Assembly (NCBI GenBank): GCA_035352955.1
Contig: DAOPYQ010000002.1
Coordinates: forward strand, 140,518-204,517
Length of the DNA: 64,000 nt
Reading direction: 5' to 3'
Origin: Candidatus Omnitrophota bacterium
GTDB lineage: Bacteria > Omnitrophota > Omnitrophia > Omnitrophales > Aquincolibacteriaceae
The notes beneath the pieces are model-generated. The model saw nothing but the letters and a program-made list of their open reading frames with translations, was not told where the DNA came from and made no database searches. Position numbers and translations under genes: made by a program. The first letter of the stretch is position 1. Each line of letters begins with the position of its first letter. Of this stretch, positions 7,235 through 45,252 are shown in pieces.

Positions 7235-8254
7235 TTATACGTTCCCTGGAAAAAACTTCCGCCACCGGCTGATCACCCTGGTAAAGGGAACGGTCCGGAA
7301 ACAACGCTTTCGGAAATTCAGAAGCCCCTCCGCGGCAGCGATCAATTTCAAACCCAGCTCCGGCTTCCCCCGGTAATACCGCGCCAGGTCCTCCTTTATA
7401 AAATGAAGGATTTCGTCAAAGGGCTTTTCTGACAGCAACAAGACCTCGCCGAAACCGAAAAGATGCTCCGGAAGTTTTTCGGGAAAATGCTTGGCGAGAA
7501 ACCTCAACCGGTTCTTCAAAATAAGCGCCGGTCTCAAAACGCTTTTCTTCCGGGATCCATGTAACCGGTGCCGCACAAGACTGCGCGGCGCGAAAATCAC
7601 TTTGTATCCGAGTCCTCGTAACCGGTAATTCATGTCCAGATCTTCCGAATACATGCGAAAATCCTCATCAAACAACCCAGCTTCTTCCAATGCCTCTTTT
7701 TTATAAAGCACCGCAACATTGGAAACGCTGATCACTTCTTCGGTCTCGGAATATTGCCCCCGATCGCGTTCTCCAAGACCGCGGTCGCCCCAATGATAAT
7801 TGGGAAGCTGTTCATGTCCGCAACTTTGGATCCTTCCGTCCATGAAAAGCACTTTGCTGCCCACCGCCCCGACATCTTCTAAAGATTGAGCCGCCCGGAC
7901 AAGTTCGATCAGCCATCGCCGGTCGACCTTCGTATCGTTGTTCAGTAACGCGACATACTCCCCGCGCGTTTCCCGGATCCCGAGATTGTTCGCGCGGCAA
8001 TAGTTGTTGCACTCATTCTGAAGGAGCCGAACCTCCGGATAATTCCGGCGAAGATACTTCAACGAACCGTCTGTGGAACCGTTATCGATCACAAACACTT
8101 CGCGCCGGTCGCCGGGATAATCCAGTTTCCGCAGTTCCTCCAGGCATTCTTTCAGCAAACGCTTCCCGTTGTAATGAACGATAAGGATCGTTACGAACGG
8201 AAGCGCTTTCTCCTGTTTCGGATCCTCAGCTCGCATGAACCGGATTCCTTTCAC
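7235..8254 (-). CDS. Family-2 glycosyltransferase
   Basis: VTILIVHYNGKRLLKECL…FVIDNGSTDGS… GT-A fold motifs and a DxD-like LNNDT. Its 5' end overlaps the upstream gene by 29 nt (8226..8254). Confidence 0.75.
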   Translation of the reverse strand: MKGIRFMRAEDPKQEKALPFVTILIVHYNGKRLLKECLEELRKLDYPGDRREVFVIDNGSTDGSLKYLRRNYPEVRLLQNECNNYCRANNLGIRETRGEYVALLNNDTKVDRRWLIELVRAAQSLEDVGAVGSKVLFMDGRIQSCGHEQLPNYHWGDRGLGERDRGQYSETEEVISVSNVAVLYKKEALEEAGLFDEDFRMYSEDLDMNYRLRGLGYKVIFAPRSLVRHRLHGSRKKSVLRPALILKNRLRFLAKHFPEKLPEHLFGFGEVLLLSEKPFDEILHFIKEDLARYYRGKPELGLKLIAAAEGLLNFRKRCFRTVPFTRVISRWRKFFPGNV

Positions 8255-9368
8255 ACCCCGGCGCGGGGCTCAAAGATATTTGTTCTTTGATCTTTTCAAT
8301 AAACACTGCCGTGTCAAATTCCCGGGCGCGCACCCGGCAGGCCTCGCGGTATTTCGCGGGATCCGCATCCAATTCTTTTCCGAGCATTTGGATCGTCCCG
8401 CGAAGTTTGTCTTCATCAATATCCCGGATCAAAACACCCGTTTTAGCGTGAACCACCGTCTCACGGTAACCACCTTCCTCCGGGGCAATGACCGGCTTGC
8501 CCGAAGCCATCGCCTCCACGACATTCATGCCAAAGTCCTCGTCCTGCGCAGTCGTAATAAAACCCTTACAATGTGCGTACAATTCTACCAGTTCTTCGTG
8601 AGAGACCCAGCTTTTGATCTCGACATTCTCCGGTTTTATCCTCGTACAATAGGCCGCATAGTCAAGAAAATGGTTCGACTGCTCGTAGCTCCCGACAATG
8701 ATCAGCCGCTCCCCGGGAAGTCCCGCAAAAGCATTCATCTGAAGGTCGATCCTCTTGTGCCGGATAAGCCGGTTCACCGAAAGCCAGTAACCCTCCGGCG
8801 GCGCATAGCGGAATTTTGAAGTCTCGACCGGCGGATGAATCACAACGGCTTCTTTGCCGAGAAATTTCGCCACTCTTTTTTTTGTATTTTCCGAATTGCA
8901 AACCACCCGCTCCACGGCTTTGACATATTTCCGGTTAAGATAACGGTTCACAATAACCCAAAGATCAAAAAATAACCGCCCCCAGAATGGAACCATTGTT
9001 TTTCTCACGTACGAATAAAGGTCCCATATCTCGCGGATCGGCGAATGGACATACCAGAGATTGGAACGGTTCTTCACCGCTCCCGACATGGCCCAGTCGC
9101 CGGCGATAACAAAAAAGTCGTATTTCTTTTTCAGGTCCAACCGCCGGAACTTCCCCAGGGCGATCTGCTGCCGCCAAGGCGGGTTGAGCGGGATCTTTCC
9201 GATCGAGAAAATCCTCGGGAGCACGTCGGCGAACCCCATGCTGCGGATCTTCTCGGGATCCGTGTTGGTCGTATAAATATCGGCGTTCAATTCCCGGGCA
9301 AGCGTCAGAGAAACGATCTCCGCCCCTCCGATGTTATCGATAAAATTGTGGAAGATCGCGATCCTCAT
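8226..9368 (-). CDS. Family-4 (GT-B) glycosyltransferase
   Basis: Start chosen at MRIAIFHNF (ATG 9368..9366), which forms an ATGA overlap with the stop of the upstream TMTC-like gene. C-terminal EAMASGKPVIAPEEGGYRETV retaining-GT4 motif. Confidence 0.7.
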   Translation of the reverse strand: MRIAIFHNFIDNIGGAEIVSLTLARELNADIYTTNTDPEKIRSMGFADVLPRIFSIGKIPLNPPWRQQIALGKFRRLDLKKKYDFFVIAGDWAMSGAVKNRSNLWYVHSPIREIWDLYSYVRKTMVPFWGRLFFDLWVIVNRYLNRKYVKAVERVVCNSENTKKRVAKFLGKEAVVIHPPVETSKFRYAPPEGYWLSVNRLIRHKRIDLQMNAFAGLPGERLIIVGSYEQSNHFLDYAAYCTRIKPENVEIKSWVSHEELVELYAHCKGFITTAQDEDFGMNVVEAMASGKPVIAPEEGGYRETVVHAKTGVLIRDIDEDKLRGTIQMLGKELDADPAKYREACRVRAREFDTAVFIEKIKEQISLSPAPGCERNPVHAS

Positions 9369-11212
9369 GAAGAATGCCGCTCCCGTTTCTTTTTTTTTGC
9401 CAATCGCAAATTCCTCTGGGCTGCCCCATAGCAAGGGTTGATCCGGACAGCCGTCTGGAACGCATTCCCGGCTTTTTCGTATTGCCCCATCATGCCGTAG
9501 GTCACTCCAAGATTGTTCCACGCTTCACCAAACAGGGGGGCTCTTTTGATAGCTTTTGTACCATAACGAATGGCATTTTCCATATCTCCGACCATTGCGT
9601 AGGCGTATCCCAGATTGCTGTACGCTTGAGCCCTTGTCGGATCCAACTCGATCGCTTGATGGCAATACCGGATTTCCCGGACATAATCCCCCATTTGTCC
9701 GTAAACCGCTCCCAAATTCGTATAAAGCTGTGCCAACGGTTCCTTGTACCCAGGCTGATATTTTAACGCCGTTTCATAAGCCGTGATTGCCTGCCTGTAG
9801 GCCCCCCTCTTTCGATAAGCGACCCCAAGGTTCACGTAAGGCCTGGCCTTATGCGGCGATTTTTTAATACAGTCCTTCCAAAACCGGATCTCATGGCCCC
9901 AGACATCGTTCCGCAAGAACGTCAGCCATGAAAAAACAAGAATCCATCCCGTCATGATCAAAAAAAAGATCCTTCGGTTCCGCAAAATATCATAAAGACC
10001 CGCACAAAGAGCCATGAGAAAACCGATCGAAGGAAGATAAAGCCGGTGTTCCATCATCGGGTCCTTCAACGGGATAAAACTCGACGTCACGGAAAGTGTC
10101 AGAAAAAACCACAGAACCCCGAAAGCGACCAGCGGGAAACGACGCGCCGCCCATACCGCGCTGCAAAGAACCGAGAAAAGGACAATAGCATTAACAAGGA
10201 CCGGGCCGTCGAACCATCCGGAAACCCATCGGATATCCGGATCGAAATTCTGCCTTAAAGGCACGAGCAACAGCCCGATATAGCGCGGGATCACTTCAAG
10301 CTGCGTCAGAAAATATTTCCCGCTCGTAATACCCATGCGCGCATGGGATTCGAATAGAGCATTAAATTTCACCGGCAAAAACCACAGAACTACCAAAAAC
10401 AAAAAACAAACGCCCGCCATCGAGATCCAGAACGTTTTTCTGGACGCCCTTGGTTCGCTCAAAGCGTTCGCTGAAACCGGCTCTTTCAGAAAAACCCATT
10501 CCACCAGAAAAATCGCCCCCGGCAACGTGAAGACCGTTTCTTTGGTAAACGCCCCCAACAGCGCCGACACCGTCGCAAGAATAAAACAAAACGCTTTTGA
10601 AAAACCGCGCGACGCATCCAATCGTCCTTTCAAATACAGGCAAAGCGACAGCATATAAAAAAAGCCGGCAAGGCATTCGAACCGCTGACTGATATAAGTC
10701 ACCGCCTGCGTCTGGATCGGATGGACCGCGAACAGCGCGCCCGTCAAAAAGGCAAACTTTCTCCCGTGCTCCGCGATCCCGCTTCCCCGCATGCGGGGCG
10801 TTTTAAAAATCAGCAAGAGCAACACTATCACCAATAGAGAGACCGCCGTATGGATCGCGACATTGACCAGGTGATAGCCGATCACCCTATACCGGCCCAC
10901 ACGATAGTTCATCGCGAACGAAGTAAATCCCACGATCCTCGCGCGATAGCTTTGAATCTTCCAGAGCTCCGGAGAGCCGATCTGGCGGATCGCGGGATTC
11001 TTGAGGATGTACTCTTCGTCATCGAATAAAAACGGCGCCCGCAGAGTATTGGAGTAAAGTAGGAACCCCCAAACACAAAGACTGATCAACGAGATCAGGA
11101 CCATCCCATTCTTTTTTTTCAGCTCCAAAAGGCCCTTCGCTTTCCCGAAAAGGACACTCCCCGCTTCTAAGGTCCCCTTCGGCTCTAAATGATTCCGGAA
11201 TTCCTTTTCCAA
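9365..11212 (-). CDS. TMTC-like GT-C membrane protein: N-terminal DUF1736/PMT-like multi-TM domain plus C-terminal TPR repeats (putative O-mannosyl/glycosyl-transferase)
   Basis: FLFDDEEYILKNP and GYHLVNVAIH motifs characteristic of DUF1736/TMTC. Around 10 TM helices. C-terminal ~200 aa consist of TPR repeats (…NLGVAYRKRGAYRQAITAYETALKYQP…). Confidence 0.65.
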   Translation of the reverse strand: MEKEFRNHLEPKGTLEAGSVLFGKAKGLLELKKKNGMVLISLISLCVWGFLLYSNTLRAPFLFDDEEYILKNPAIRQIGSPELWKIQSYRARIVGFTSFAMNYRVGRYRVIGYHLVNVAIHTAVSLLVIVLLLLIFKTPRMRGSGIAEHGRKFAFLTGALFAVHPIQTQAVTYISQRFECLAGFFYMLSLCLYLKGRLDASRGFSKAFCFILATVSALLGAFTKETVFTLPGAIFLVEWVFLKEPVSANALSEPRASRKTFWISMAGVCFLFLVVLWFLPVKFNALFESHARMGITSGKYFLTQLEVIPRYIGLLLVPLRQNFDPDIRWVSGWFDGPVLVNAIVLFSVLCSAVWAARRFPLVAFGVLWFFLTLSVTSSFIPLKDPMMEHRLYLPSIGFLMALCAGLYDILRNRRIFFLIMTGWILVFSWLTFLRNDVWGHEIRFWKDCIKKSPHKARPYVNLGVAYRKRGAYRQAITAYETALKYQPGYKEPLAQLYTNLGAVYGQMGDYVREIRYCHQAIELDPTRAQAYSNLGYAYAMVGDMENAIRYGTKAIKRAPLFGEAWNNLGVTYGMMGQYEKAGNAFQTAVRINPCYGAAQRNLRLAKKKKRERHSS

Positions 11213-11362
11213 TTGGTCACTTCACCCAAAGAGGATATCGCTTAAAAAATTTATTCGGCGCCGTACCGCTCCGCCACGCTTCAGATCTCTGCGCCGACGA
11301 TCGTTTTTTTCTGAAAAAATGCCCGTCAGCAAGCAAGTCTTCTTCACCGATAATTTCTTTTT

Positions 11363-12103
11363 CTATTCATATCGCGTCGGATCTTGTTTCAGTCGCGCCA
11401 AAACTTTTGGGACATCTTGAGGTTCATCCACCGAAATCGAGTCGGTGGAAAGCTCGATCATCCTGACCCTGACTCCCATCTCAAGAAATCTCAAGATCTC
11501 TATATCCTCGATCCGTTCCAGGGGAGTTTTAGCGGAAGCTCCCCCGAACCGCAAAAGCACCTCTTTGGGGAAAGCATAAACGCACACCTGTCTCCAGGCA
11601 TTGAGAAGCCCTACCTTTCCACTCGCGGGGATCGGTGCTCGCGACATATAAAGGAGCTGACCATCTTTTCCGAAAGCAACTTTGGGGATGTTCCGGCTGA
11701 GGAATAAGCCTTCCTCTTTTATCGGGCAATATCCGTTCAAAATTTCCCCGGGAAATTTGGGGAGAATTTCCAGGATCTTAGAGATATCCTTCGGATTGAA
11801 CACCGGTTCATCCCCCTGGACATTGATATAGTAGTCAGCCTCAACCGCCCTACTGGCTTCAGCAACACGATCTGTTCCCGTCAAACAACTCGCGGACGTC
11901 ATAATAACATTCATCCCATGCTCCCGGCAGTGAGACGCGATCCGCTCATCGTCCGTCGCAACAAAAATATCCCGCCGATCGAAAGCCTTGGCGCATTGCC
12001 CAAATGTTCGCTGGATCATTGTTTTCCCCATCAGATCGATCAGCGGTTTTCCGGGCAACCGGGAGGATTGGAATCTAACCGGGATCACCAAAACAATTTT
12101 CAT
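11363..12103 (-). CDS. kdsB: 3-deoxy-manno-octulosonate cytidylyltransferase (CMP-Kdo synthetase, KdsB/KpsU family)
   Basis: IPVRFQSSRLPGKPL and INVQGDEP motifs match the CMP-Kdo synthetase family; 246 aa. Confidence 0.6.
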   Translation of the reverse strand: MKIVLVIPVRFQSSRLPGKPLIDLMGKTMIQRTFGQCAKAFDRRDIFVATDDERIASHCREHGMNVIMTSASCLTGTDRVAEASRAVEADYYINVQGDEPVFNPKDISKILEILPKFPGEILNGYCPIKEEGLFLSRNIPKVAFGKDGQLLYMSRAPIPASGKVGLLNAWRQVCVYAFPKEVLLRFGGASAKTPLERIEDIEILRFLEMGVRVRMIELSTDSISVDEPQDVPKVLARLKQDPTRYE

Positions 12104-12653
12104 CGGTCGGCCATGTCTCTTTTCGTTTGAAGTGGCTTTGCATCTTCCCGAACCGGCTTTGTCTTATCTAAAATGCCGGCACTTTTAAAAGTTCGCACTT
12201 TTTTCCGAATCTCTCATGAAACCACAGCGCAAGAATCTGGCGCCCCGCCTTGCCATGGCAACAATCTTCCTTCGCAAACAATCCCCGGGAATCACAAACC
12301 ATCGGACCGCTCAGATTGGAAGACTCCGCTTTCCGTAAACGCATCTCAATCCACAAGCATCGCCCTTGGCCCAGCATCTTCGAACTGATGTTTTCCGAAA
12401 ACTCTTGCGACGCAAATGCCATTGACAACGAAAATGGCCCTCGCAAAACTCTTAGCCAAGTCAACTACGCCCTCTTTGTTGATAGACTCTAGGGTGAACC
12501 CGTTCATTAACTTAAATCCAGAGAGTAAAACAAGGGTTCTCGGCTAAGATGTTACACAGGAAATCGCACCTAAGCTGGAAATCCTCTCCTGAACCTTTCG
12601 GAGAATATTTCCCAAAAGATTTGCGAGGGAAGAACCCGTGCCGCAGCAACTCT

Positions 12654-14474
12654 TCATAATTTTTGAGCCTGCCATTGCTTATAAAACAACCCTTTCCGAT
12701 CGATCAGCTCTGTCAAGGTCCCTGACTCCGCAACCCGTCCTTTATCCAGATAAATGATCTTATTGGCTTTCCGAATGGTCGAAAGCCTGTGGGCGATTAC
12801 GATCAGTGTTTTTTCACGGCTTGTTTCCAAGATAAATTCATTAATACGGGCCTCGGTCCCGGAGTCCAGAGCGCTGGTCGCCTCATCCATGATCAAGATC
12901 TCCGGATCTTTAATCAGCGCCCGCGCGATCGACAACCTCTGGCGCTCCCCGCCGGAAAGGCGGGTCCCCCGTTCTCCGACAAGCGTCTCATATTTTTGAG
13001 GCATTTTTCCCACAAAATCCTGGATCTGGACCTTTCCCCCAAGCTCATGAAGCCGTTCTTCCGAGATTTCTCCGGAAACCCCGTAAACGATGTTGTTCCG
13101 GATCGTATCATTGAAAAGAAGGACCTCCTGGCTTATGAGCGCCATGCGCCCTCGGAGTGACGCTATCTCGTAGTCGCGGATATCCCGCCCGTCCACAAAA
13201 ATGGCCTCCGGCGGGCAATCGTAGAACCTCAACAGCAGGTTCACAAGCGTGCTCTTCCCGGAACCCGAGGGCCCCACGATCGCAACGACCGACTGCCGGG
13301 GGATCGAAAAATTGACCTTGTCCAGGACGTACGCCTCCTTTTCTCCGTACCGGAAAGAAAGCTCCCTGAACTCGATCGCCTTCTTGAGTCCCGTGAATTC
13401 CACGGAACCACTTTCGACACCGGCATGGCCCTTGTGATAAAGGACCTGCTCAATATCATGAATGGCCGAAGCGGCGTTCGCGGACCCAAGCTTGAATGTG
13501 TTGATCGCATTGAATCCCGGAATCACCCGCATCGCAAGATAGAAAAAGACGAATGCCTGCGACGGGTCCGGAGCATGATCAAACTTCATCACGATCGCCA
13601 ACCCGAAGGCGAGACACAGAATCCCGGTCACGGAACCAAGATCCGACACAGGCCCCGCCAAGCTGGTCAACCGCTGCGTCTTAAAGGAATGATCGACCTC
13701 CTCTTCGCTGGCTTTGGAGAACCGGGCGATCTCTTCCCGCTCTTTCACAAAACTCCGGATCACCGGCATGCAGTAGAGCATATTGAAGATCCGTTCGTGA
13801 AGGTTCTTGGCATAGCGATCGTGCTCTCGCGAGGCCTCACGAATCCTCCGAATGATGTTCTGGGTCAAAAATTCGGTCAGCGGGAAGGCCACAGCCGCCA
13901 CACAGGTCAATTTCCACGATAGATGGGCCATCATGCTGATATACGCCACAAGGAGAAGGGCCTGGACGATAAAATGCTGAAATAACTGGAACTGAGATTC
14001 GATCAGACTGGTGGCCTTGGTCAGGACGGTCTGCAGGAAAGCGGTTGTGTTCTTATCGTAAAAACTTTTGCTGTAGCTTAGGCATTTTTCAACCAACAAC
14101 CGGCGGATATTCGCCGTAGCATACCGGGCCTGGGTTTGGCTGCAAAACGACGCGAAATACAAAAAAACATTCTTCGCGATCGTAACGAGATAGAACCAGA
14201 CCACCAGCAACGCGAATAACCGCGTCGAGGTACGGAAAAGACCTGGAAACCGCATCACAAAAAAACGAAGGACCGGAAGGTGCCCTACGTGCTTAAAATC
14301 CCCGCGCAGGATCCCTCCCGTCAGCGGCAATAGCAACTGGGCGGCATAAAGCGCTAGCAAACTGAAACAGAAAGAAAAAATGACGGACAGGGCCAAAAAC
14401 CACATGTTGACCCGCCCCATTTTCAGGAACGCGATAAGCTTTTTTGTGTTCTGAAAGACTTCACTCTGCGACAT
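12654..14474 (-). CDS. ABC exporter with fused permease and ATPase (MsbA/PglK-like lipid or lipid-linked glycan flippase)
   Basis: Six N-terminal TM helices. Walker A GPSGSGKST, signature LSGGERQRLSIARAL, Walker B ILIMDEATSALD. Start taken at MSQSEV (14474); the ORF could extend to 14519. Confidence 0.75.
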   Translation of the reverse strand: MSQSEVFQNTKKLIAFLKMGRVNMWFLALSVIFSFCFSLLALYAAQLLLPLTGGILRGDFKHVGHLPVLRFFVMRFPGLFRTSTRLFALLVVWFYLVTIAKNVFLYFASFCSQTQARYATANIRRLLVEKCLSYSKSFYDKNTTAFLQTVLTKATSLIESQFQLFQHFIVQALLLVAYISMMAHLSWKLTCVAAVAFPLTEFLTQNIIRRIREASREHDRYAKNLHERIFNMLYCMPVIRSFVKEREEIARFSKASEEEVDHSFKTQRLTSLAGPVSDLGSVTGILCLAFGLAIVMKFDHAPDPSQAFVFFYLAMRVIPGFNAINTFKLGSANAASAIHDIEQVLYHKGHAGVESGSVEFTGLKKAIEFRELSFRYGEKEAYVLDKVNFSIPRQSVVAIVGPSGSGKSTLVNLLLRFYDCPPEAIFVDGRDIRDYEIASLRGRMALISQEVLLFNDTIRNNIVYGVSGEISEERLHELGGKVQIQDFVGKMPQKYETLVGERGTRLSGGERQRLSIARALIKDPEILIMDEATSALDSGTEARINEFILETSREKTLIVIAHRLSTIRKANKIIYLDKGRVAESGTLTELIDRKGLFYKQWQAQKL

Positions 14475-14527
14475 TCTTCTTGTCCTTGTTTTAGCAGAAA
14501 AGGGCCCGCCCCGTTCCACTCAGTAAC

Positions 14528-15355
14528 CTACCCCTGCATTCCCAAAAAGTCCCTCACGCGGTACTTCTCGGCATGGATTTTATCACGGACCCTTTGCCAA
14601 AACGAGCGGTCCGGTCCTTCCTGGAACGGCTCAAAACAAACCGGACGGGCAACAAACCCGCTCTTTTCCACCACCCGAGATAAAAGTCTCTCGATCGCGT
14701 GAGCCAAAGTTCCGTTACGCCGAATCGATACCTCACACGGAAAATCTTCCATACCCAAACCCAATTCATATAAAGGAGCCAAGGCCCTCGGGCGGAACCA
14801 GAACATGGATCCTGCCGGGAAAACGACGGCTTTCGTCGCCGGAAGTTCGAGCCCCAAGCGCCCCGCAAGCACCGAACAGATCTTCCAGTTGTTGCTCCAG
14901 GATTCCTTCTCAAGGCCCCCCCCGAGGATCGGGATCACTTCAGGATAGACCATCCCCAACCGTTCGTTTTCCTCGAACATCCGCAAAATCGCCGCGACTG
15001 TTCCGGCAGACCCGGCGAGATTTTCAAGAAGATAACGTCCCCATTCTTTGAGCCACAAGCGGTGAGGACTCTTTTTGGTGTGGACCTTGAGAACAAGATC
15101 ATAACCGGAATAAATTTCCCCGAATTCGCAGAGGAACGGCGCGATATCAAAACCGCGATTCAGGACGCCCTTCAAGAAGATCTTTTTCCCGGGGAACGCC
15201 TCCGACAAAACGCTTCGGACCTTCTTCACAGAAGCCGCGGGAGCTGACGCGTACAGATCGAATTCCCGGGGAATATTCTTCAAATAGCCGGCGATCATTC
15301 CAGCCTGCTCCTCGTAGAAAAAATGTCCTACGACGGCGATCCTGAAAGGGGTCAT
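14528..15355 (-). CDS. RgpF-like (rhamnan synthesis protein F family) glycosyltransferase domain protein
   Basis: MTPFRIAVVGHFFYEE… resembles the N-terminal domain of the 1203-aa protein (RIAIVVHCYYPE…). Start ATG 15355 forms an ATGA overlap with the upstream gene's stop. Confidence 0.5.
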   Translation of the reverse strand: MTPFRIAVVGHFFYEEQAGMIAGYLKNIPREFDLYASAPAASVKKVRSVLSEAFPGKKIFLKGVLNRGFDIAPFLCEFGEIYSGYDLVLKVHTKKSPHRLWLKEWGRYLLENLAGSAGTVAAILRMFEENERLGMVYPEVIPILGGGLEKESWSNNWKICSVLAGRLGLELPATKAVVFPAGSMFWFRPRALAPLYELGLGMEDFPCEVSIRRNGTLAHAIERLLSRVVEKSGFVARPVCFEPFQEGPDRSFWQRVRDKIHAEKYRVRDFLGMQG

Positions 15356-16605: not shown

Positions 16606-16658
16606 GTTCGCTGTCTTTCTTTTAAACGATCTGGATTCCCGCGTCGCCGGGAAATAAT

Positions 16659-17729: not shown

Positions 17730-17762
17730 TTTATCAGTCTCCTTCCTCAGCTATGAAACGCT

Positions 17763-24312: not shown

Positions 24313-24457
24313 AGAATTCCAAATCAGTTGATCTGATAGATGAAACCGCCCTCCTGAGGGCCGCTTGTGATGATCATAAGGAACAACGTCAGCAAAAAGA
24401 GCGCCATCAAAAGAATAGCGCCCCACAGCACATATTTCCCGAAAGAGATCTTTCCCA

Positions 24458-25438: not shown

Positions 25439-25457
25439 CGATCGTCTTTCCCCGGTC

Positions 25458-27089: not shown

Positions 27090-27109
27090 ACCCGATCCTT
27101 GACCGTCGT

Positions 27110-30100
27110 TCAGGCGTTAGCCGGAACGGAACTCCCGCATTGTTTTTCAACCGTTCCGCGCGGCGGCCAAGCAAGCCGATAATCCGCGCTATCAAGCGTC
27201 AAATTGGGATTGTAGGCAGGATCCTTCAACAGCAGATCCCCCCAGGTTTTTTTCATGTAATCACACTCGGAAATAAACCGCGTTTGCGTCTCCGGAGAAC
27301 GATCGTTCCCGCGCGTCGCGGCCTCCCTGTGCCAAAGCTCCGCATACGGCGTCCAGACGTTCCGATATCCCGCTTCACGAATGCGAATGCAAAGGTCTAC
27401 ATCGTTATAAGCAATGGGAAGATCGTATTCATTAAATCCTCCCATCCTCTCGAACAGAGATTTCCGGATCATAAGGCAGGCCGCCGTCACGGCCGAAAAA
27501 GACTGCAGCAGCTCCGCCCGGCCGAGATAACCGGGCGCCCCGCGCCGCAACCCGCGATGAGAATGTGAAGCGATCCCGCCAAGCCCGAGAATGACACCCC
27601 CGTGCTGGAGGGTACGATCGAGATACCACAACCTCGCCCCGACCGCGCCCACCCCGGGCTGAACTGCCAGGCTCACAAGCTCCGAGAGCCATCCGGAAGA
27701 GATCACTTCGATATCATTGTTGAGAAAACAGACCAATTCTCCGGCGGCAGCCCGGACGGCCGCGTTGTTGAGCGCCGAATAATTAAAAGGCCTCCCGTCA
27801 CGGATCACCCGGATTTTTTTGTTGTGCGCAAGATGCTCAAGATACCGAAGCGTTCCGGGATCGTCCGAACCGTTATCAATGATAAGAATCTCATAATGGG
27901 AATAGAGTGTTTTCCGAAGAATACTTTTGACGCATTTTTGGATCAAGGGTAACCCGTTCCGTGTAAGAATCATCAAGCTCACAAACGGTAAGGGAGCCGG
28001 AAGATCGTAACGCACACGGTACCCGTGATCTTTCATCATCTTCGCGCGGGCCCCGATCTTCCGCCTCTGAAGAAATTCATTTAAGGCCTTTTCTCCGGCT
28101 AGGCGGGCATAGGGCTTGGACCCTCCGGATCTCGCGGCCTCGCTCGCCTTATGAATACGCCAATGATAGAGCACCTGCGGGATATGCCGGATCTTGTCGC
28201 CGCCGATCACCTCCAGACAACGCAAGGCCAGATCATAGTCTTGGGATCCTTCCATGCCGACCCGGAGCCCTCCGATCTCGCGGAGCAGTTGCGTTTGGTA
28301 AACCCCGAGATGAGAAATCATGTTATGCGACAGGAACAGATCATAATTCCAGTCGCTTTTAAAATAAGGCTCCACCCGCCGCGATTCTTCATCGATCTTG
28401 TCTTCGTCGGAATAGATCAGACAAGTTTCGGGGTGCTGTTGAAGAACCTCCGCGACCCGGAACAGGGCGCACTCGGACAGCAGATCATCATGATCAAGCA
28501 AAGCAACCCATTTCCCTTCAGCCAGTTGCAGAGCGCTGTTGGACGCGGCTGAAATGTGACCGTTCTTTTCGCGAAAGACGACCTTGATGCGCGGGTCTTT
28601 TTTGATATAGCGTTCCAAAAGCGTCCGGACCTCGGGATCCGTGGATGCGTCGTCGGCAATGCAGAGTTCCCAGTCGGGATAGATCTGGCTCCGCACAGAT
28701 TCGATCGCTTCCTGGAGCCAGAGGATCTTCGGGTTATAGACAGGCATCAAAACAGAAAGCAGGGGGCGGAACTTGAACGCTTCGGCCGCACGACGCATCC
28801 GCCCGCGCGTTTCGTCGGTCAGCGTATCGTACAAAGCGATCCAGCGGCCGTAACCGTACACATCCCAGGTCATGTCCTCAAAGGTCCGTCCCTCTTTTTT
28901 CCCCTTCCGGAGATAGTGCAACAGCGGATTTTCCCCGGAAGCCACAACATCGGGATAATCTTTCAGATACTTGCCGCCGTCAAAACGAAGGCTTGGAGAA
29001 CGCCCTTCGGTCCCTCCGATCGTCAGATAATGTTCGAGGGGATCCCTGCCGGCCCGGGCAACGTCTGAATAGGTTTTCAAATACCATTCGCGATCGAAAA
29101 ACCCCGAATATTTCACGCAATGCATGTCGGAAAGATTTTGCAAGAAGGGGTCTCCCAAAGCCCCGTAGATCCGTAACGCGAGATTTCTGAGCTTGCCGGG
29201 CCGCAGCCGGTTGATCCCCATCAACAACGGACACAACTTCTTTCCCTGCGGAAACGGCCGGTACCCTTTCTTTTTCCCGTCACGCAGATAATGCTCCAAC
29301 GGATTGACCCCGGCCCCGGCAACTTCCGGATATTCTTTCAGATACCACACGCCGTCAAAATATGGCCCCGGCAGACGGCCTTCGCGCCAACCGTGCGTAA
29401 GATAATGTTCCAAGGGATCTCTTTTGGCACGGGCCACATCGGGATATTTTGTGAGATACCATTCCCCGTCAAAAAAACCGGAGCGCTGAATGACCTCTGT
29501 GTGAGAAAGTCCCCATCCCATCGTTTTACCGAACCAGACGCCAAGCCTTTTCATCCACGCCGGAACCCAACGCCCCGCGACCGTGAAAAAATACCAATCC
29601 TCCGAAGCCCGGATCGCTTGTATTTCGTCCCGAAGACTCCGGACTTCCTGATCGCTTTTCGCCGCGGCCGATTCAAACTCTACCGCTCTTTGTTGTTGTT
29701 CGGCGGCGGCTTGCTGGTAGAAGCAAAGATGTTTCTTAAGATAGGCGCCATCGATCCCCCAGCTCAAAAGATCTTCCGCCATACGCGGGGACCGGGTACA
29801 TAATCTTTCATACTCGCCTCTCTTGGACGCGCAACCCGAGGACAAAACCGAACGGATCCGTTCCCAATGATATCGGTAAGCGGCCGTCACTTCTTCGGAA
29901 AGACGGATAGGAACCGGCACCTTTTCGATCCCCGCCAGTTGTCCCCATGAATCCAGAAAATGTTTTTCCGGCGTCTCTTTCTGCCCGATCGTCCCGAGAA
30001 AACTCTGATATTTGTGAGCGGGATACGGCGGAATCATGATTGCCGGGATCCCGTAGGAAACGGCCGTGATGAATCCGTGCAGTGAATTACCAAAATAACC

Positions 30101-30907
30101 GGCGGCATGGGCGATCAACCCGGCCGCGCGCCGGACCGAACCGGGATGGGGGATCGTCACGCAATCCCTGAAATGCGCCGCAAGACGTTCATACAGCGCG
30201 TTTTCCATGATCCACGGCGTCAACGAAAGCAGGACAGGGCGGGCGCGGCGGAGAGAAAGAACCCGTTCAATGCCTTTCCGGATCGCATCCCCCTGAGACA
30301 AAGAGCACTGTCCATTGATCTCGAAAATAAAATAGGTCCCGTCGATCTCCCGGGGATGCTTGGGCCACATTTGCGAGATCCCAAGCGCCGAATCGGGCGT
30401 CACGCGGATCTCACGCCCGGCGGCAAAGTCAAAGAGATACCGGGTGCTCTCTTCATCGCGAACTGAAAGATACTCCGAAACCTTCAGGCAATGCCGGACA
30501 AATTCTACCGAAACTTCGTCGACTGCCCACGGGCATCCCGGCGCGTTCCAGGCTAAAGGAACGGAAAGACGGGACGCCATCACCCCGGCCCCCAGCCACA
30601 ATCCCGGTAAAGCGGCCACGGACGCCATCTCATTTTGCGCCCAGGAACCGATCCTCCAGGGGACAGTCTGGAGAATATCCCCGCCGCCGATCAGGATCCC
30701 GTCCCAGACCTTATCCTTCGCTTTTTCGAAGGAAAGGATCCGGCAGGCATCCTTCCAGGGAGGCGCCGCATCCTCTGGAGCAATGTGGATCAGCGAAAAA
30801 TCCTTCCCTAAAAAATGCTCCGCAATGTGCGGGAGCAACAGATCGCCGTAACTGTCGTGATTAAAAGCTCCCAGATGGGCGATGGTCTTCATGGTTGGAT
30901 CTTCCAT
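27110..30907 (-). CDS. Giant multidomain enzyme: polysaccharide pyruvyl transferase domain, four tandem WY..PDV..HY..G..EGR modules and two GT2 glycosyltransferase domains
   Basis: 1265 aa. N-terminal HLGAFNHDSYGDLLLPHI…ILIGGGDILQ (PS_pyruv_trans/CsaB-like). GFFDGEWYLTKYPDVARAKRDPLEHYLTHGWREGRLPG, plus three further copies. LLSVLMPVYNPK…IADDASTD (GT2 #1). VSLMILTRNG…IIDNGSDD (GT2 #2). Confidence 0.7.
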   Translation of the reverse strand: MEDPTMKTIAHLGAFNHDSYGDLLLPHIAEHFLGKDFSLIHIAPEDAAPPWKDACRILSFEKAKDKVWDGILIGGGDILQTVPWRIGSWAQNEMASVAALPGLWLGAGVMASRLSVPLAWNAPGCPWAVDEVSVEFVRHCLKVSEYLSVRDEESTRYLFDFAAGREIRVTPDSALGISQMWPKHPREIDGTYFIFEINGQCSLSQGDAIRKGIERVLSLRRARPVLLSLTPWIMENALYERLAAHFRDCVTIPHPGSVRRAAGLIAHAAGYFGNSLHGFITAVSYGIPAIMIPPYPAHKYQSFLGTIGQKETPEKHFLDSWGQLAGIEKVPVPIRLSEEVTAAYRYHWERIRSVLSSGCASKRGEYERLCTRSPRMAEDLLSWGIDGAYLKKHLCFYQQAAAEQQQRAVEFESAAAKSDQEVRSLRDEIQAIRASEDWYFFTVAGRWVPAWMKRLGVWFGKTMGWGLSHTEVIQRSGFFDGEWYLTKYPDVARAKRDPLEHYLTHGWREGRLPGPYFDGVWYLKEYPEVAGAGVNPLEHYLRDGKKKGYRPFPQGKKLCPLLMGINRLRPGKLRNLALRIYGALGDPFLQNLSDMHCVKYSGFFDREWYLKTYSDVARAGRDPLEHYLTIGGTEGRSPSLRFDGGKYLKDYPDVVASGENPLLHYLRKGKKEGRTFEDMTWDVYGYGRWIALYDTLTDETRGRMRRAAEAFKFRPLLSVLMPVYNPKILWLQEAIESVRSQIYPDWELCIADDASTDPEVRTLLERYIKKDPRIKVVFREKNGHISAASNSALQLAEGKWVALLDHDDLLSECALFRVAEVLQQHPETCLIYSDEDKIDEESRRVEPYFKSDWNYDLFLSHNMISHLGVYQTQLLREIGGLRVGMEGSQDYDLALRCLEVIGGDKIRHIPQVLYHWRIHKASEAARSGGSKPYARLAGEKALNEFLQRRKIGARAKMMKDHGYRVRYDLPAPLPFVSLMILTRNGLPLIQKCVKSILRKTLYSHYEILIIDNGSDDPGTLRYLEHLAHNKKIRVIRDGRPFNYSALNNAAVRAAAGELVCFLNNDIEVISSGWLSELVSLAVQPGVGAVGARLWYLDRTLQHGGVILGLGGIASHSHRGLRRGAPGYLGRAELLQSFSAVTAACLMIRKSLFERMGGFNEYDLPIAYNDVDLCIRIREAGYRNVWTPYAELWHREAATRGNDRSPETQTRFISECDYMKKTWGDLLLKDPAYNPNLTLDSADYRLAWPPRGTVEKQCGSSVPANA

Positions 30908-30958
30908 TTCATGGGCTTTATTGGCGTCGCAAAATTCCTGAACAATGTGAGGGGCATT

Positions 30959-32881
30959 CTAGCCCAAAAATCCGCCCCGGGCGAGATAACGTATGATCTG
31001 GTCGGCGGCAATATCCGCGGACAGAACCGCCGTATCCAAGAGTAAGGCGGGAGCTTCAGGGACTTCATAGGGAGCATTCACGCCGGTGAACTCCGTGATC
31101 AAGCCGGCGCGGGCCTTTTCATAGAGGCCCTTCGGGTCTCGCTTCTCGCAGACTTCCACCGGCGCATCAAGAAAAATCTCTATGAATCGGTCCCGTCCGA
31201 TGATCTCCCCGGCTTTGGCCCGGTCCTCCCGGTACGGCGAGATAAACGCCGTGATCACGATCACGCCGGCTTCATTTAAAAGCCGTGCCACTTCGGCCAC
31301 ACGACGGATATTCTCGCTCCGGTCTTGCGGCGAGAACCCGAGGTCCCGATTAAGTCCATGCCTCACATTGTCGCCGTCCAGGACGTAACACAAATGCCCT
31401 GCCGCCATGAGCTTCTTCTCAACTTCATAAGCTACGGTAGATTTCCCGGAACCACTCAGCCCGGTCAGCCACAATGTCGCCGGTTTTTGTTTCAGGAGCC
31501 GTTCCCGCTCCTGATGGGGAACGTCCCCTTCCTGTCGGTGGATCAAAGCGCTTTGAGAAACAGCCGTATCGTCCGGACGAACCATGGAAGACAACCGTCC
31601 CCGTTCAATGATCATACCGGCCGCGACCGTTGCGTGCGTCATCGGATCGATCAGGATGAAACTTCCGGTCTGCCGGTTCCGGGTATATTCATCGCAAAAC
31701 ACGGACCGGAAACACTGCACGGTCACCCGACCGATCTCGTTCAGTTTCAGTTCCGCCGCCTTCTTGCGGCTCAAGGTCCCGGGATCGATCCGGAACGGAA
31801 GACGCGTGATCGAACACTTAAAAAGTTGCGTGGTGTGTTTGATCCAGTAGACTTTTCCGAGAGCAAGCGGCGACGGATCCATCCAGACCAGGATCGATTC
31901 GATTTCGCGGCGGATCTGCGGCAAGTTCCCCGAATGGACCAGCATGTCGCCGCGCGTGATATCGATCTCGTCTTCGAGCGTGACCGTGACCGACTGCGGC
32001 GCGAAAGCGTACGGCACCGCGCCGTCCGGACCGCGAATCGAACGGATGCGCGTCCGCCTCTGGGACGGAAGCGCGAGAACTTCATCCCCTTTCCGGATCA
32101 CTCCCGACGCGATCCGCCCGGCATAACCGCGAAAATCCTGCCCCGGCCTTAACACATATTGCACGGGGAACCGGAGATCGATCAGGTTCCGGTCGCTTAA
32201 GACATGTACGTTCTCAAGATGGTTCAAAAGCGCCGGGCCGTCATACCATTTCATGTGCCGGCTTTTCCGGACGACATTATCGCCTTTCAACGCGCTAACC
32301 GGAATATAGACCGTGTCCGGAACATTGAGCTTTTCCGCGAATCCTTCGAAATCGCGTGCGATCTTCCGGAAAACTTTTTCCGAATAACCCACGAGGTCCA
32401 TTTTATTGACCGCGATCACCATATGTTTGATGCCGAGGAGCGACGCGATGAACGCGTGCCGTTTGGATTGGAGAAGCACGCCCCGCCGCGCATCGATCAG
32501 AATAACGGCAAGGTCCGCCGTGGACGCGCCGGTCGCCATGTTCCGCGTGTACTGTTCGTGCCCCGGCGTGTCCGCAATAATAAAATGCCGTTGGGGGGTT
32601 GAAAAATAGCGGTAGGCAACGTCGATCGTGATCGCCTGCTCGCGTTCGGCTTTCAGACCGTCCATCACGAGCGAAAGATCGAGGGCTTCACGCTTCAGCC
32701 GCGCGGAATCTTTCCGAACCGCGGCCAGCTGGTCCTCATAAAGACCATGCGCCTCGTAAAGCAACCGGCCGATCAGCGTGGATTTTCCATCATCCACGCT
32801 CCCTGCCGTCGAAAACCGCAAGAGATCCGCTTCCCGGCCTTGCTTAAGAACCTTTTCTTTTCTGCGGGAGGCCTTTTTCAT
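30959..32881 (-). CDS. cysNC: Bifunctional sulfate adenylyltransferase subunit 1 / adenylylsulfate (APS) kinase
   Basis: N-terminal GTPase GSVDDGKSTLIGRLL…DTPGHEQY. C-terminal APS kinase P-loop LWLTGLSGSGKSTVA. TGATG overlap with cysD. Confidence 0.9.
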   Translation of the reverse strand: MKKASRRKEKVLKQGREADLLRFSTAGSVDDGKSTLIGRLLYEAHGLYEDQLAAVRKDSARLKREALDLSLVMDGLKAEREQAITIDVAYRYFSTPQRHFIIADTPGHEQYTRNMATGASTADLAVILIDARRGVLLQSKRHAFIASLLGIKHMVIAVNKMDLVGYSEKVFRKIARDFEGFAEKLNVPDTVYIPVSALKGDNVVRKSRHMKWYDGPALLNHLENVHVLSDRNLIDLRFPVQYVLRPGQDFRGYAGRIASGVIRKGDEVLALPSQRRTRIRSIRGPDGAVPYAFAPQSVTVTLEDEIDITRGDMLVHSGNLPQIRREIESILVWMDPSPLALGKVYWIKHTTQLFKCSITRLPFRIDPGTLSRKKAAELKLNEIGRVTVQCFRSVFCDEYTRNRQTGSFILIDPMTHATVAAGMIIERGRLSSMVRPDDTAVSQSALIHRQEGDVPHQERERLLKQKPATLWLTGLSGSGKSTVAYEVEKKLMAAGHLCYVLDGDNVRHGLNRDLGFSPQDRSENIRRVAEVARLLNEAGVIVITAFISPYREDRAKAGEIIGRDRFIEIFLDAPVEVCEKRDPKGLYEKARAGLITEFTGVNAPYEVPEAPALLLDTAVLSADIAADQIIRYLARGGFLG

Positions 32882-33786
32882 CAGAAATATCCTTCCCGTT
32901 TTTTCTGTTCCATGGACGCATCCTGGTCATGGTCGATCAGCCGCGTGATCCGCTCGGAATGATTCACAGCCATGATCTCTTCGATGATCGCGGGCACCGT
33001 CGCCGCCGTCGACCGGACCGCTCCCGTACAGGGATAGCACCCTAGCGTCCGGAACCGGCACATGACTTTTTGCGGCTTTTCACCCTTCCGCAGAGGGACG
33101 GGCCCATCCAGCGGGATCAGCTGTCCTTCCCGGACGATCATCTCGCGAAGCTTGGCAAAATACATGGGAACCACGGGGATCTTTTCCTGATGGATGTACT
33201 GCCAGACATCCAGTTCGATCCAGTTGGAAAGCGGGAACACGCGAATGCTTTCCCCCTGATTGACCTTCGTGTTGTAGAGGTTCCAAAGCTCCGGCCGCTG
33301 GTTCTTCGGGTCCCATTGCCCGAATTCATCGCGAAAGGAAAACACGCGTTCTTTCGCGCGGGATTTTTCTTCATCCCGCCGAGCGCCGCCGAACGCGGCG
33401 TCGAATCCGCCTTCCTTGATCGCGTTCAGAAGCGCCTGCGTCTTCAGGAGCGAGCAACATTTCACCGTCCCCAGGTCCCAGGGATTCGCCCCCTGATCGA
33501 GCGCTTCGCGAAAAATATAGACGCGGAGATCGGCGCCGATCTTCCGGGCGAACCGGTCGCGGAAAGCGATCATCTCCTTGAATTTCATCGTGGTGTCGAC
33601 ATGCAAAAGCGGGAATGGGATCGGCCCGGGAGCGAAGGCTTTCTGCGCGAGACGGACCATGACAGAAGAATCTTTCCCGACCGAATAGAGCATGACCGGG
33701 CGCTCAAAAGACGCGGCCACTTCCCGCAGGATGTGAATACTCTCCGCCTCAAGAAGCCGGAGTTTGCTGAGCCGATAGTTTTCCAT
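32881..33786 (-). CDS. cysD: Sulfate adenylyltransferase subunit 2
   Basis: PAPS-reductase-fold motif [17 protein letters not shown]; 301 aa; translationally coupled to cysNC. Confidence 0.9.
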
Positions 33787-33815
33787 GATCTCTTACGAGC
33801 CGGAGGAGAGTTCGG

Positions 33816-34676
33816 TTAGAAACTTTTCATTGTCTTGATCAACGTAAAAACCCCGAGAATAATGGTCAGCGTTGCGATAAGTCCCTTGAGGAGCTTCGGG
33901 CTCATGATCTTGACGTTCTTCGCGGCAAGCGGCGTCGCGCAAACCGCCCCGCTGATGATCATGGCCGCCACTCGCCAATCGATGCTGTTTTTTGCCGTCA
34001 GAAGATAGATCGTGACTCCCAAAGCGCAAGTGATGCCCTCCGCCATGGACGTGATCCCGACAGCGTTCTTTCCTTCCACGCCGGAAAGCATTTGTCCGCT
34101 CACCACCAAAGGCCCGTATCCTCCGCCCGTTAGCCCCTTGTTGAAAGACGCCAGCAATCCGAGCCCGACGATCTTTTTCCAGGAATACGCGAATTGTTTA
34201 TTGAAACAGACCACGATCAGGATCCCCATCGCGATCACCATGACACTGATATAGAGGGAAGTCCATTTTTGCGGCAAAACCTTCGCCGTAAAGACCGCGC
34301 CGGACGATCCGAGAATCGTCGCGGACAAGAGCAGAAGAACGACTTTCAGATGAGAAGAGATCTGGATCCCGTACGTGTGGTGATCGGGATTCACCGGCCC
34401 CGGAAGCCGGAGACTGTCTTTCATACGCTGAAAATCCAGGACCTTGAAATGAAAATCCACGTTCCCTTCCCGATGGTGGAACGCGCCCGAAAGAACCCCC
34501 GTGATCAGCTCGGAAAGCAGGACTGCCGGGACGATCTGGATGGGCGTGAAACCGAAAAGCATCAGGACCGGCGTCATGGTCGTACCGTATCCCATCCCTA
34601 GCGTGGAGTCCATGTATTCGCAGCAAAATGCAATGAGAACTATAACGGCGATCATTTGCAATGTTATGTCCGGCAT
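33816..34676 (-). CDS. TSUP (TauE/SafE) family anion permease, probable sulfate/sulfite transporter
   Basis: 8 TM helices with an internal duplication and Gly-rich helices typical of PF01925. Sits immediately upstream of cysD in the same orientation. Confidence 0.65.
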   Translation of the reverse strand: MPDITLQMIAVIVLIAFCCEYMDSTLGMGYGTTMTPVLMLFGFTPIQIVPAVLLSELITGVLSGAFHHREGNVDFHFKVLDFQRMKDSLRLPGPVNPDHHTYGIQISSHLKVVLLLLSATILGSSGAVFTAKVLPQKWTSLYISVMVIAMGILIVVCFNKQFAYSWKKIVGLGLLASFNKGLTGGGYGPLVVSGQMLSGVEGKNAVGITSMAEGITCALGVTIYLLTAKNSIDWRVAAMIISGAVCATPLAAKNVKIMSPKLLKGLIATLTIILGVFTLIKTMKSF

Positions 34677-36476: not shown

Positions 36477-36662
36477 CACGCCCTTATGGTAAAACTCTAA
36501 GCAGAACAGGTCAATAGAAGTAACGACCATCTACGGCCAAACCTGACAAAAAATCTCTTCATCTTCTGAAAAAACCACGGCTCAGAGCCTCGTCTGAAAA
36601 ATATCCGGTAACCTTTTAAGATTCTCACGGTATAATCCTTTTCCCTAAAGGAGGGATTAATC

Positions 36663-44272: not shown

Positions 44273-44363
44273 AGCGCCCTTCCTTCACTCGAATTTATGA
44301 ATACTTACCAGGACGATCGATCCGCGGCAACCCGGCCCATTTTACCAATAACTTATTTTCGGC

Positions 44364-44585: not shown

Positions 44586-44619
44586 AGCTAACAGCCTCCG
44601 GGACTTCCCCCTTTTGCCG

Positions 44620-45085: not shown

Positions 45086-45092
45086 GGCTATT

Positions 45093-45122: not shown

Positions 45123-45252
45123 GAAACCCATGGAATTGAACTCGGTCGGCTTATGAGTGTCCGGGCTACAGACTTCGAACGGACTGAGACCTGGCGGTGT
45201 CGTAGAAAGAACGTTGGCCTCCCTGCCGGGGGCCAAACGGAGGTCCGCGGTC

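Follow-up and report, generated by a model that had tools for sequence, protein, structure and literature searches.

A locus predicted to assemble, export and tailor a sulfated, pyruvylated surface polysaccharide in an uncultured Omnitrophota bacterium

In ABC (ATP-binding cassette)-dependent O-antigen and capsule systems, exemplified by WbdA, WbbB and KpsC, two or three glycosyltransferase (GT) modules are fused in single polypeptides at the cytoplasmic face; genes of Kdo (3-deoxy-D-manno-octulosonate) metabolism accompany the multidomain GTs in the WbbB and KpsC/S systems, and this group as a whole exports through two-component transporters (Wzm/Wzt or KpsM/T) and has Kdo transferases that can be recognised as such. 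Rhizobia provide a second precedent, NodP/NodQ-NodH, in which a dedicated supply of PAPS (3'-phosphoadenosine 5'-phosphosulfate) stands beside a sulfotransferase and serves the Nod factor, a lipo-chitooligosaccharide, rather than assimilation. Here we describe a glycan biosynthesis locus of an uncultured Candidatus Omnitrophota bacterium, which we analysed within a 64-kb window (the whole stretch of DNA studied; all positions are window coordinates). The locus resembles the first group in its very large multi-GT polypeptides, and NodP/NodQ-NodH in that a CysD and a CysN-APS (adenosine 5'-phosphosulfate) kinase protein are encoded beside a sulfotransferase. Unlike the first group, it has no Wzm/Wzt or KpsM/T transporter and no Kdo transferase, and unlike the rhizobial system it is set in a large heteropolysaccharide cluster and its sulfotransferase has an extra N-terminal domain.

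With respect to sulfation, the closest characterised system is the synechan cluster (xss) of Synechocystis sp. PCC 6803 (PMC8205485), which likewise combines many GTs with PAPS-type sulfotransferases related to PF00685/PF13469. However, xss is Wzx/Wzy/PCP (polysaccharide co-polymerase)-dependent, consists of single-domain GTs and is governed by two-component control rather than by a GGDEF sensor, and it is without the adjacent cysDNC, the pyruvyl-transferase fusion, the ABC exporter and the SGNH set that are all present in the Omnitrophota locus. With respect to export, Wzk of Helicobacter pylori exemplifies an ABC-flippase route for which no dedicated outer-membrane exporter is needed (PMC2841628). 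Like Wzk, PglK and HepA, the transporter described here is a half-transporter with fused transmembrane (TMD) and nucleotide-binding (NBD) domains, encoded together with cytoplasmic GTs and without Wzy, PCP or OPX (outer-membrane polysaccharide export) proteins; unlike them, it scores below the equivalog cut-offs and has neither a WecA-type initiator nor a WaaL ligase nearby. We propose, with a probability of about 0.62, that the products of the locus assemble, export and tailor a sulfated, pyruvylated surface heteropolysaccharide of the ABC-exporter type. Domain and family comparisons establish what the proteins are, and it is from these identities that we infer the substrates, the order of the steps, the carrier lipid and the role in export. 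An earlier, sequence-only reading of the window had recognised a glycan biosynthesis locus by eye, and each of its domain assignments survived testing.

Sulfation is the best-supported modification of the product, and sulfate was underplayed in that earlier reading. Its supply is encoded, on the minus strand like the rest of the run, by a TauE/SafE (TSUP-family) anion permease (33816-34676; Pfam TauE, 101.6 bits; at least five hydrophobic helices), by CysD, the small subunit of sulfate adenylyltransferase (32881-33786; NCBIfam NF003587, 467 bits against a cut-off of 195), and by CysNC, which joins the large subunit to an APS kinase and makes PAPS (30959-32881; NF004035, 919 bits against a cut-off of 715). 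The permease would carry sulfate or sulfite for this branch, and adjacency suggests that all three genes are dedicated to the glycan. The presumed user of PAPS is a 543-residue protein (25458-27089, minus strand) that Pfam alone leaves just below threshold (20.9 bits vs 22), while its homologues carry PF00685/PF13469. It has the motifs KSGTT at residue 234 and RDPRDRILS at residue 298; in the family G236, T237 and T238 are nearly invariant, and R298 and S306 are shared without exception by the 13 homologues compared. In an AF2 model built from 13 sequences, residues 226-472 reached a confidence (pLDDT) of 80-95, and the top 50 Foldseek matches of this C-terminal domain in the PDB were all PAPS sulfotransferases. 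By modelled fold, motifs and homologues the C-terminal domain is thus a PAPS sulfotransferase, with transfer to the glycan as its predicted role. The N-terminal domain (residues 1-225), which carries a GKTGGDST motif at residue 13, could be a second sulfotransferase-like domain; at a pLDDT below 60, and with one homologue (P0037) covering it, this identity was not demonstrable. A SulP sulfate permease (Sulfate_transp plus STAS) is encoded to the left of the window (L034, 13825-23603) and could also feed sulfation. Among bacteria, sulfated extracellular polysaccharides (EPS) have been described as a speciality of cyanobacteria, in which sulfotransferase genes also occur in ABC-type EPS clusters (PMC8205485), and our literature search returned no papers linking Omnitrophota with sulfotransferases.

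The cluster encodes two giant polypeptides. The larger, of 1265 (or 1260) residues (27110-30907, minus strand), joins a pyruvyl transferase (residues 20-292) to two GT2 domains (718-878 and 976-1197) by Pfam, with the pyruvyl-transferase domain scoring 79.1 bits against PF04230 (cut-off 25.3) over profile positions 2-276 of 280. The other, of 1203 residues and starting with GTG (18848-22459, minus strand), consists of an RgpF-like domain (106-328), a GT2 (499-641) and a GT4 (838-1166). Both fusions had been proposed in the earlier reading and were confirmed by Pfam; its view that such fusion is unusual did not hold, because similar architectures (pyruvyl transferase+GT2+GT4 and RgpF+GT2+GT4, 1035-1792 residues) are found among the nearest metagenomic homologues. 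A separate RgpF-like GT of 275 residues (14528-15355, minus strand, joined to its neighbour by an ATGA overlap) shares 35% identity with the RgpF domain in the 1203-residue protein, and both (155.6 and 102.9 bits, respectively) match only the C-terminal half of PF05045 (approximately positions 268-502 of 503); no dTDP-rhamnose genes are present in the window. A further, 362-residue protein (17763-18851, minus strand) is probably a GT-A-type glycosyltransferase, a weak assignment given its sub-cut-off Pfam GT2 score of 20.4 bits and its match to KfiA in the PDB at E 0.036.

Four of these enzymes share a repeat of about 35 residues, with the consensus FDxxWYLxxNPDVxxxGxDPxxHYxxxGxxEGRxP, that matches no Pfam family. 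Of its seven clear copies, four lie in the 1265-residue protein between the pyruvyl-transferase and GT2 domains (residues ~479-675, located with a hidden Markov model of the repeat), and one each in the 1203-residue protein (48-82; a strong match), at the C-terminus of the 362-residue protein (76.6 bits) and at the C-terminus of the 543-residue sulfotransferase. Among all six-frame open reading frames (ORFs) of the window the repeat is confined to these four cytoplasmic enzymes, and it may act as a docking element that joins enzymes in a cytoplasmic complex.

A 606-residue ABC exporter of the MsbA/PglK/HepA type (12654-14474, minus strand) is encoded by the gene that closes the tightly packed part of the run. 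An exporter had been noticed here previously, and its fused TMD-NBD architecture was confirmed by Pfam (PF00664, ABC_membrane, 75.5 bits; PF00005, ABC_tran, 111.7 bits). The best NCBIfam matches are HepA, MsbA, a glucan exporter and PglK, all below cut-off (HepA 408.6 bits vs 725; MsbA 371.1 vs 602; PglK 230.6 vs 1000). The next gene, kdsB (11363-12103, minus strand), encodes a CMP-Kdo synthetase, an identity that is secured by the NCBIfam subfamily NF009905 (269.6 bits, cut-off 255), while the score for the equivalog TIGR00466 was 132 against a required 155. The earlier suggestion that this enzyme completes the pathway fared less well: kdsB is set apart by spacers on both sides, and among the proteins of the cluster Pfam and NCBIfam revealed no Kdo transferase, whether of the WaaA, KpsC/S or GT99 type. 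It may instead be a housekeeping gene of lipopolysaccharide (LPS) synthesis and not a member of the pathway; for Kdo as a constituent of the product, nothing speaks in favour beyond the proximity of kdsB.

According to the ORF listing and gap table, the minus-strand run comprises 19 genes from 36530 to 7235, that is 29.3 kb, of which 96% is coding. It starts one gene before position 34676, the limit of the interval considered earlier, with a gene for a CHASE2-GGDEF membrane sensor and putative diguanylate cyclase (34737-36530; Pfam CHASE2 152.9 bits, GGDEF 122.6 bits) that lies 60 nt upstream of the TauE gene. In the interval 7235-34676 itself, where about 20 uninterrupted genes had been counted, there are 18, all co-oriented and including a 44-codon ORF that had been missed; the description as uninterrupted fails at the spacers around kdsB. 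The 15 genes from 36530 to 12654 are separated by gaps of at most 60 nt and include five overlaps. Reading of the junctions confirmed the ATGA overlaps at 9365-9368, 15352-15355 and 18848-18851 and the TGATG at 32881 (a 1-nt overlap of cysD and cysNC), and added a TAATG at 24458; the 4-nt overlap at 22456-22459 is genuine and reads GTGA, the start of the 1203-residue protein being GTG. The 29-nt overlap reported at 8226-8254 applies if translation starts at GTG 8254, and shrinks to 11 nt with the better-supported ATG 8236, which has AAGGA 9 nt upstream and is used by the gene caller on an independent contig (333 residues). Short stop/start overlaps and same-strand packing are a normal signature of bacterial operons and are not statistically remarkable.

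Between the ABC exporter gene and kdsB, the run is broken by a non-coding spacer of 550 nt (12104-12653) that contains no credible ORF and has no Rfam match; the gene caller places only ORFs of 53 and 69 residues there, neither with a Pfam hit. A second spacer follows kdsB and measures 150 nt or 258 nt, depending on whether the next gene starts at TTG 11212 or ATG 11104, after which the last three genes of the run overlap one another. Rfam gave no match in the window or its spacers, no DNA tandem repeats were found, and scans for consensus promoters and terminators gave results no different from those for shuffled sequence (38 terminator-like sites vs 30.6 +/- 5.9 expected); a terminator-like hairpin followed by a T-run is located at 7229-7215, after the last gene. 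The single polycistron envisaged in the sequence-only reading is improbable for the region 7235-36530, since the spacers on either side of kdsB point to a division into three units or more; kdsB and the three genes after it probably form transcription units separate from the tight one.

The pathway that we propose for the sulfated, pyruvylated polysaccharide would start with the TauE-like permease, CysD and CysNC supplying PAPS. About ten cytoplasmic GT modules, five of them in the two giant polypeptides, would assemble the chain, bound to a lipid carrier, on the cytoplasmic side of the inner membrane; the fused pyruvyl-transferase domain would add pyruvate ketals and the 543-residue sulfotransferase would add sulfate, and the 35-residue repeat may hold four cytoplasmic enzymes together as one complex. 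The fused ABC exporter would then move the complete lipid-linked glycan across the inner membrane in the manner of H. pylori Wzk, after which four anchored SGNH proteins, two of which bracket a DltX-like microprotein, would modify it in the periplasm. The CHASE2-GGDEF sensor encoded by the first gene may link the process to cyclic di-GMP signalling.

Several observations weigh against this proposal. In the window, no initiating phosphoglycosyl transferase, Wzx/Wzy, PCP/OPX or WaaL-type ligase was detected, nor any gene of nucleotide-sugar synthesis other than kdsB; neither an outer-membrane exporter nor a membrane-embedded synthase was detected by Pfam in the window. Because initiator, export/polymerase, ligase and nucleotide-sugar genes were undetected, the pathway is incomplete as encoded in the window. 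The missing OPX and PCP proteins would fit a Wzk-like, LPS-linked route, without proving such a route. In addition, the ABC exporter falls below every equivalog cut-off and could be a housekeeping MsbA, and no acyl-translocating enzyme was found by Pfam among all ORFs of the window or in the ~8 kb to its left. In the sensor, the GGDEF motif is degenerate, reading GDEEF (GRYGDEEFIVLL) vs GG[DE]EF, and there is no obvious RxxD I-site, which leaves its predicted cyclase activity uncertain. Finally, in another Omnitrophota metagenome-assembled genome (MAG) the SGNH-microprotein-SGNH triad described below lies outside any glycan cluster. Apart from sulfation and this triad, the locus is a polysaccharide cluster of the usual densely packed kind.

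The four membrane-anchored SGNH proteins had also been recognised by eye, and all four were upheld, two by Pfam, one by predicted fold and one by profile comparison and invariant residues. The first, of 326 residues (or 317 from ATG 25411; 24458-25438, minus strand), matches Lipase_GDSL_2 at 54 bits and the NCBIfam LA_2486 family below cut-off (E 2e-15); its blocks are GDS (99-101), G, IND and DDAH (298-301). The second, of 356 residues (16659-17729, minus strand), is AlgX-like, scoring 37.6 bits with Lipase_GDSL_2, 32.3 with ALGX and 31.6 with Lipase_GDSL, and carries GDS (86-88), GND and NDTHW (320). The third, of 618 residues (22456-24312, minus strand), combines a transmembrane (TM) anchor with an SGNH domain (residues ~90-340) and a C-terminal beta-sandwich (~345-595). 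It has GGS at 98-100, where homologues have GDS or GGS, and a family-invariant His322, while neither the Asn of block III nor the Asp of DxxH shows clear conservation. It has eight homologues only, the two with organism names being Omnitrophota, and the best structural matches of its predicted fold are carbohydrate esterases and lipolytic enzymes. The fourth, of 417 residues (15352-16605, minus strand), belongs to a large family without a Pfam model (3912 representatives at E<=1e-3), in which GGS (108-110), DGxN (174-177, with N177) and D391/H395 are invariant, its own blocks reading DGFND and DDCCH. Five of 35 members of this family match ALGX and five of 35 match Lipase_GDSL_2, in each case weakly; an hhalign comparison related the protein to the 326-residue SGNH protein (probability 89%, E 2.4e-6), and the family profile was uninformative against the PDB. 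Each of the four proteins starts with a single hydrophobic helix preceded by basic residues, which would place the catalytic domains in the periplasm. That they carry out multiple O-acyl modifications, as suggested earlier, is a plausible prediction; no MBOAT or AT3 translocase and no cytoplasmic acetyltransferase was found in the window or the ~8 kb to its left.

The overlooked ORF lies between the genes for the 326- and 618-residue SGNH proteins (24324-24458, minus strand), is translationally coupled to the former by the TAATG junction and encodes a 44-residue microprotein with a single TM helix, MGKISFGKYVLWGAILLMALFLLTLFLMIITSGPQEGGFIYQIN, annotated by NCBI as hypothetical (HNX68300.1). 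Two lysines (K3 and K8) precede a hydrophobic helix at residues ~10-31, and the 13-residue tail ends in GGFIYQIN, with the tyrosine at position 41. An FxYxxF "acyl shuttle" hexapeptide carries the acyl group on its tyrosine from an MBOAT protein to an SGNH transferase, and non-Dlt pathways are stated to have no free shuttle microprotein of this kind (PMC12148441); DltX of B. thuringiensis, for comparison, consists of 11+22+15 residues and ends in TSTFIYNEF (PMC5541007). The microprotein described here resembles the components of such Dlt and PatA-PatB relays in having fewer than 50 residues, a basic N-terminus, one TM helix, a tail of ~13 residues predicted to lie outside and an F-I-Y-x-x-x end, and in being encoded beside membrane-anchored SGNH proteins. 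It differs in that no MBOAT protein (DltB/PatA) and no carrier protein is encoded nearby, in that two SGNH proteins flank it rather than one, in its Gram-negative host (Omnitrophota/Planctomycetales) and in its last residue: in FIYQIN the F and Y of FxYxxF are present and the final position is N, not F. In the window, the microprotein matches no Pfam or NCBIfam model, including the profile of the DltX family (DUF3687).

The order SGNH, microprotein, 618-residue homologue recurs in a second Omnitrophota MAG (L004=L023) and in a Planctomycetales MAG (L020/L032), and a fourth contig has a 59-residue ORF in the microprotein position. Across the three lineages the GGFIYQIN tail is identical, with the F and Y of the motif 100% conserved, vs 57-60% identity for the SGNH proteins and 33-36% for the 618-residue homologues. 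A scan of genome contigs for GFIYQIN at the C-terminus gave 26 matches, of which only those in L020 and L023 are real microproteins, one on the Omnitrophota contig L009 is ambiguous and the rest occur by chance, and a stricter pattern applied to metagenome contigs gave a single match (L032); both patterns catch this exact tail only, so that diverged shuttles are missed. On the Planctomycetales contig (L032, Ga0265336_10010103), the triad is directly preceded, at 11-2810, by the C-terminal part of a carbamoyltransferase, by SxtJ and by a DUF5989 protein ending in APFIYTLF, and the L004 orthologue of the microprotein matches DUF5989 below cut-off (E 1.2e-3). A carbamoyltransferase-SxtJ-DUF5989 trio of the SxtI/J/K kind is one of the closest known systems, with the difference that none of its components (carbamoyltransferase, SxtJ, a true DUF5989 protein) is present in the window. 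SxtJ and SxtK are uncharacterised partners of a carbamoyltransferase (PMC2885083), no papers on DUF5989 were found in the literature, and the synteny on L032 points to a connection of DUF5989/SxtK-type microproteins with SGNH enzymes of the periplasm. We tentatively raise the idea, with the odds clearly against it, that the triad is a new tyrosine-shuttle relay that decorates envelope glycans in Omnitrophota and Planctomycetales without an adjacent MBOAT protein, akin to DltX, to the MBOAT hexapeptides and to DUF5989/SxtK. In such a relay, one SGNH protein could transfer a group from a donor, either periplasmic or a lipid, to Tyr41, and the other could unload it onto the polymer; alternatively, as the gene order on L032 hints, a carbamoyltransferase-SxtJ module could supply the relay.

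Downstream of kdsB lies a gene for a protein with multiple TM helices and a C-terminal TPR domain (9365-11212, minus strand; at least seven hydrophobic helices within residues ~1-400 counted from ATG 11104; TPR by Pfam). A 579-residue form of it is not among the identical records in public archives, and its N-terminal domain found no match in Pfam, NCBIfam, PDB sequences or plasmids (tblastn); phmmer against the PDB was uninformative for this TM domain as well as for the 543-, 417-, 618- and 362-residue proteins. Its motifs FLFDDEEY, GYHLVNV and FAVHPIQTQAV resemble GT-C signatures of the TMTC/PMT type, and it is for this reason only that we suspect a GT-C/TMTC-like periplasmic glycosyltransferase, the available sequence comparisons having been negative. 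It is followed, through an ATGA overlap, by a 380-residue GT4 (8226-9368, minus strand; Glycos_transf_1 86.7 bits, Glyco_transf_4 34.8 bits) and by the last gene of the run, which encodes a 333-residue GT2 (7235-8236, minus strand; Glycos_transf_2 77.3 bits). Convergent to these is a plus-strand GT2 gene (6078-7211; Pfam GT2 86.3 bits; GT2_TM_C) whose product has four C-terminal TM helices and, as best NCBIfam matches, AglJ, a dolichyl-phosphate hexose transferase, PpgS and ArnC, none of which reaches its cut-off. Judged by these matches it resembles a polyprenyl-phosphate sugar synthase and is a possible supplier of donor to the TM-TPR protein, with which it may form a periplasmic glycosylation pair.

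This convergent gene is all that separates the cluster from a 1200-residue autotransporter with PATR repeats (2228-5830, minus strand). Beyond the autotransporter, to the left of the window (L034, 13825-23603), a 2126-residue protein with a glycoside-hydrolase-2-like domain, an MFS transporter and an SDF transporter are encoded. On the other side of the cluster, a low-GC island at ~44000-50200 (GC 0.44-0.47 vs ~0.55 elsewhere) encodes a 692-residue protein matching PDC-M36A in PADLOC, a match to PDC-S05 and a DUF1016+SNase protein matching PDC-S02, and is a candidate defence or mobile island.

The giant ORFs could owe their length to chimeric assembly or to frameshifts, as might be suspected from NCBI annotating only the C-terminal 562 residues (704-1265; HNX68303.1) of the 1265-codon ORF and from some databases holding 1076-residue versions of the 1203-residue protein. 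Both ORFs are nevertheless open throughout in the window DNA, Pfam domains tile their entire length with the linker occupied by the structured repeat, and the shorter database entries match parts of these sequences at 100% identity, as fits different start calls; the NCBI short form is a different start call on a fully open ORF, and the pyruvyl-transferase half may as a result be unannotated in public records. The 1260-residue form is called identically on seven contigs (ENA ERZ795026, Logan SRR4236661, JGI and NCBI) and the 1203-residue product at the same full length on at least six (NCBI, Logan, ENA and JGI). Most other cluster proteins, including the 44-residue one, have identical sequences on record from several archives, the 606-residue ABC product is also called by NCBI, and the NCBI label on members of the cluster is "MAG TPA: Candidatus Omnitrophota bacterium"; a scan of genome contigs with the 1265-residue protein as query returned no relatives. 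Because identical products recur in separate assemblies, the giant ORFs are not chimeras, and an artefact is largely refuted and highly improbable. More substance attaches to the view that the ABC protein is MsbA, a lipid A-core flippase encoded near kdsB as in enterobacteria, and that the polysaccharide is exported by machinery encoded elsewhere: the match to TIGR02203 (371 bits, residues 107-613), kdsB as the next gene and the lack of any other export component in the cluster are all compatible with it. We regard it as improbable all the same, as the score is far below the MsbA cut-off of 602 bits, HepA, a glycan exporter, scores higher (408.6 bits), and only 9-53 nt lie between the RgpF gene and the start of this one, which closes the tight GT unit, 550 nt away from kdsB.

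The place of kdsB also bears on whether the locus is a composite of independent units that happen to share a strand, namely a sulfated-glycan operon (36530-12654), a housekeeping kdsB and a separate periplasmic glycosylation module, in which the TM-TPR putative GT-C, the GT4, the GT2 and the convergent synthase would modify proteins or LPS rather than the sulfated polymer. The spacers of 550 and 150-258 nt that flank kdsB, the lack of a Kdo transferase domain in the cluster, the plus-strand GT2 with its four C-terminal TM helices and its likeness to dolichyl/polyprenyl-phosphate sugar synthases, and a lipid A acyltransferase at 40501-41385, which indicates that the organism makes LPS, would all agree with such an arrangement. 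On the other hand, the genes of the run all point the same way and all relate to glycans, there is no conspicuous terminator (38 sites vs 30.6 +/- 5.9), and the GT-C assignment is only putative; we consider a composite quite possible, at somewhat less than even odds, and it partly overlaps with the sulfated-polysaccharide proposal without excluding it. The periplasmic end of that proposal has its own competitor, in which the SGNH proteins are not O-acyltransferases: they would act in the periplasm as esterases or lipases, or make up a portable module that has nothing to do with this glycan, and the likeness of FIYQIN to DltX would be due to chance. The esterase-like and lipolytic structural matches of the 618-residue protein point this way, as do the absence of MBOAT, AT3 and acetyltransferase genes nearby (MBOAT and AT3 are absent also from the examined parts of L004, L020 and L032), the triad outside a glycan cluster in L004, and the asparagine at the end of a motif that finds no match in the DltX Pfam family. 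Yet no acyl-adding enzyme is encoded either, which leaves a de-acylating enzyme without an obvious substrate; conservation of the last eight residues of the microprotein is 100%, beside neighbours at 33-60% identity; and the Planctomycetales triad directly follows a carbamoyltransferase-SxtJ-DUF5989 module in which DUF5989 ends in a perfect FxYxxF. Such an explanation is therefore unlikely in our judgement, though it deserves to be kept in view.

If the locus does direct the synthesis of a sulfated, pyruvylated surface polysaccharide, its combination of PAPS supply, sulfotransferase and pyruvyl transferase in Omnitrophota would extend sulfated polysaccharides to an uncultured and little-understood phylum, and it would offer new enzymes for the production of sulfated glycans. 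The triad, if functional, would challenge the statement that only Dlt systems use a free shuttle microprotein and would provide a testable function for DUF5989/SxtK proteins, which, should the shuttle idea be true, would in general be group-shuttling microproteins.

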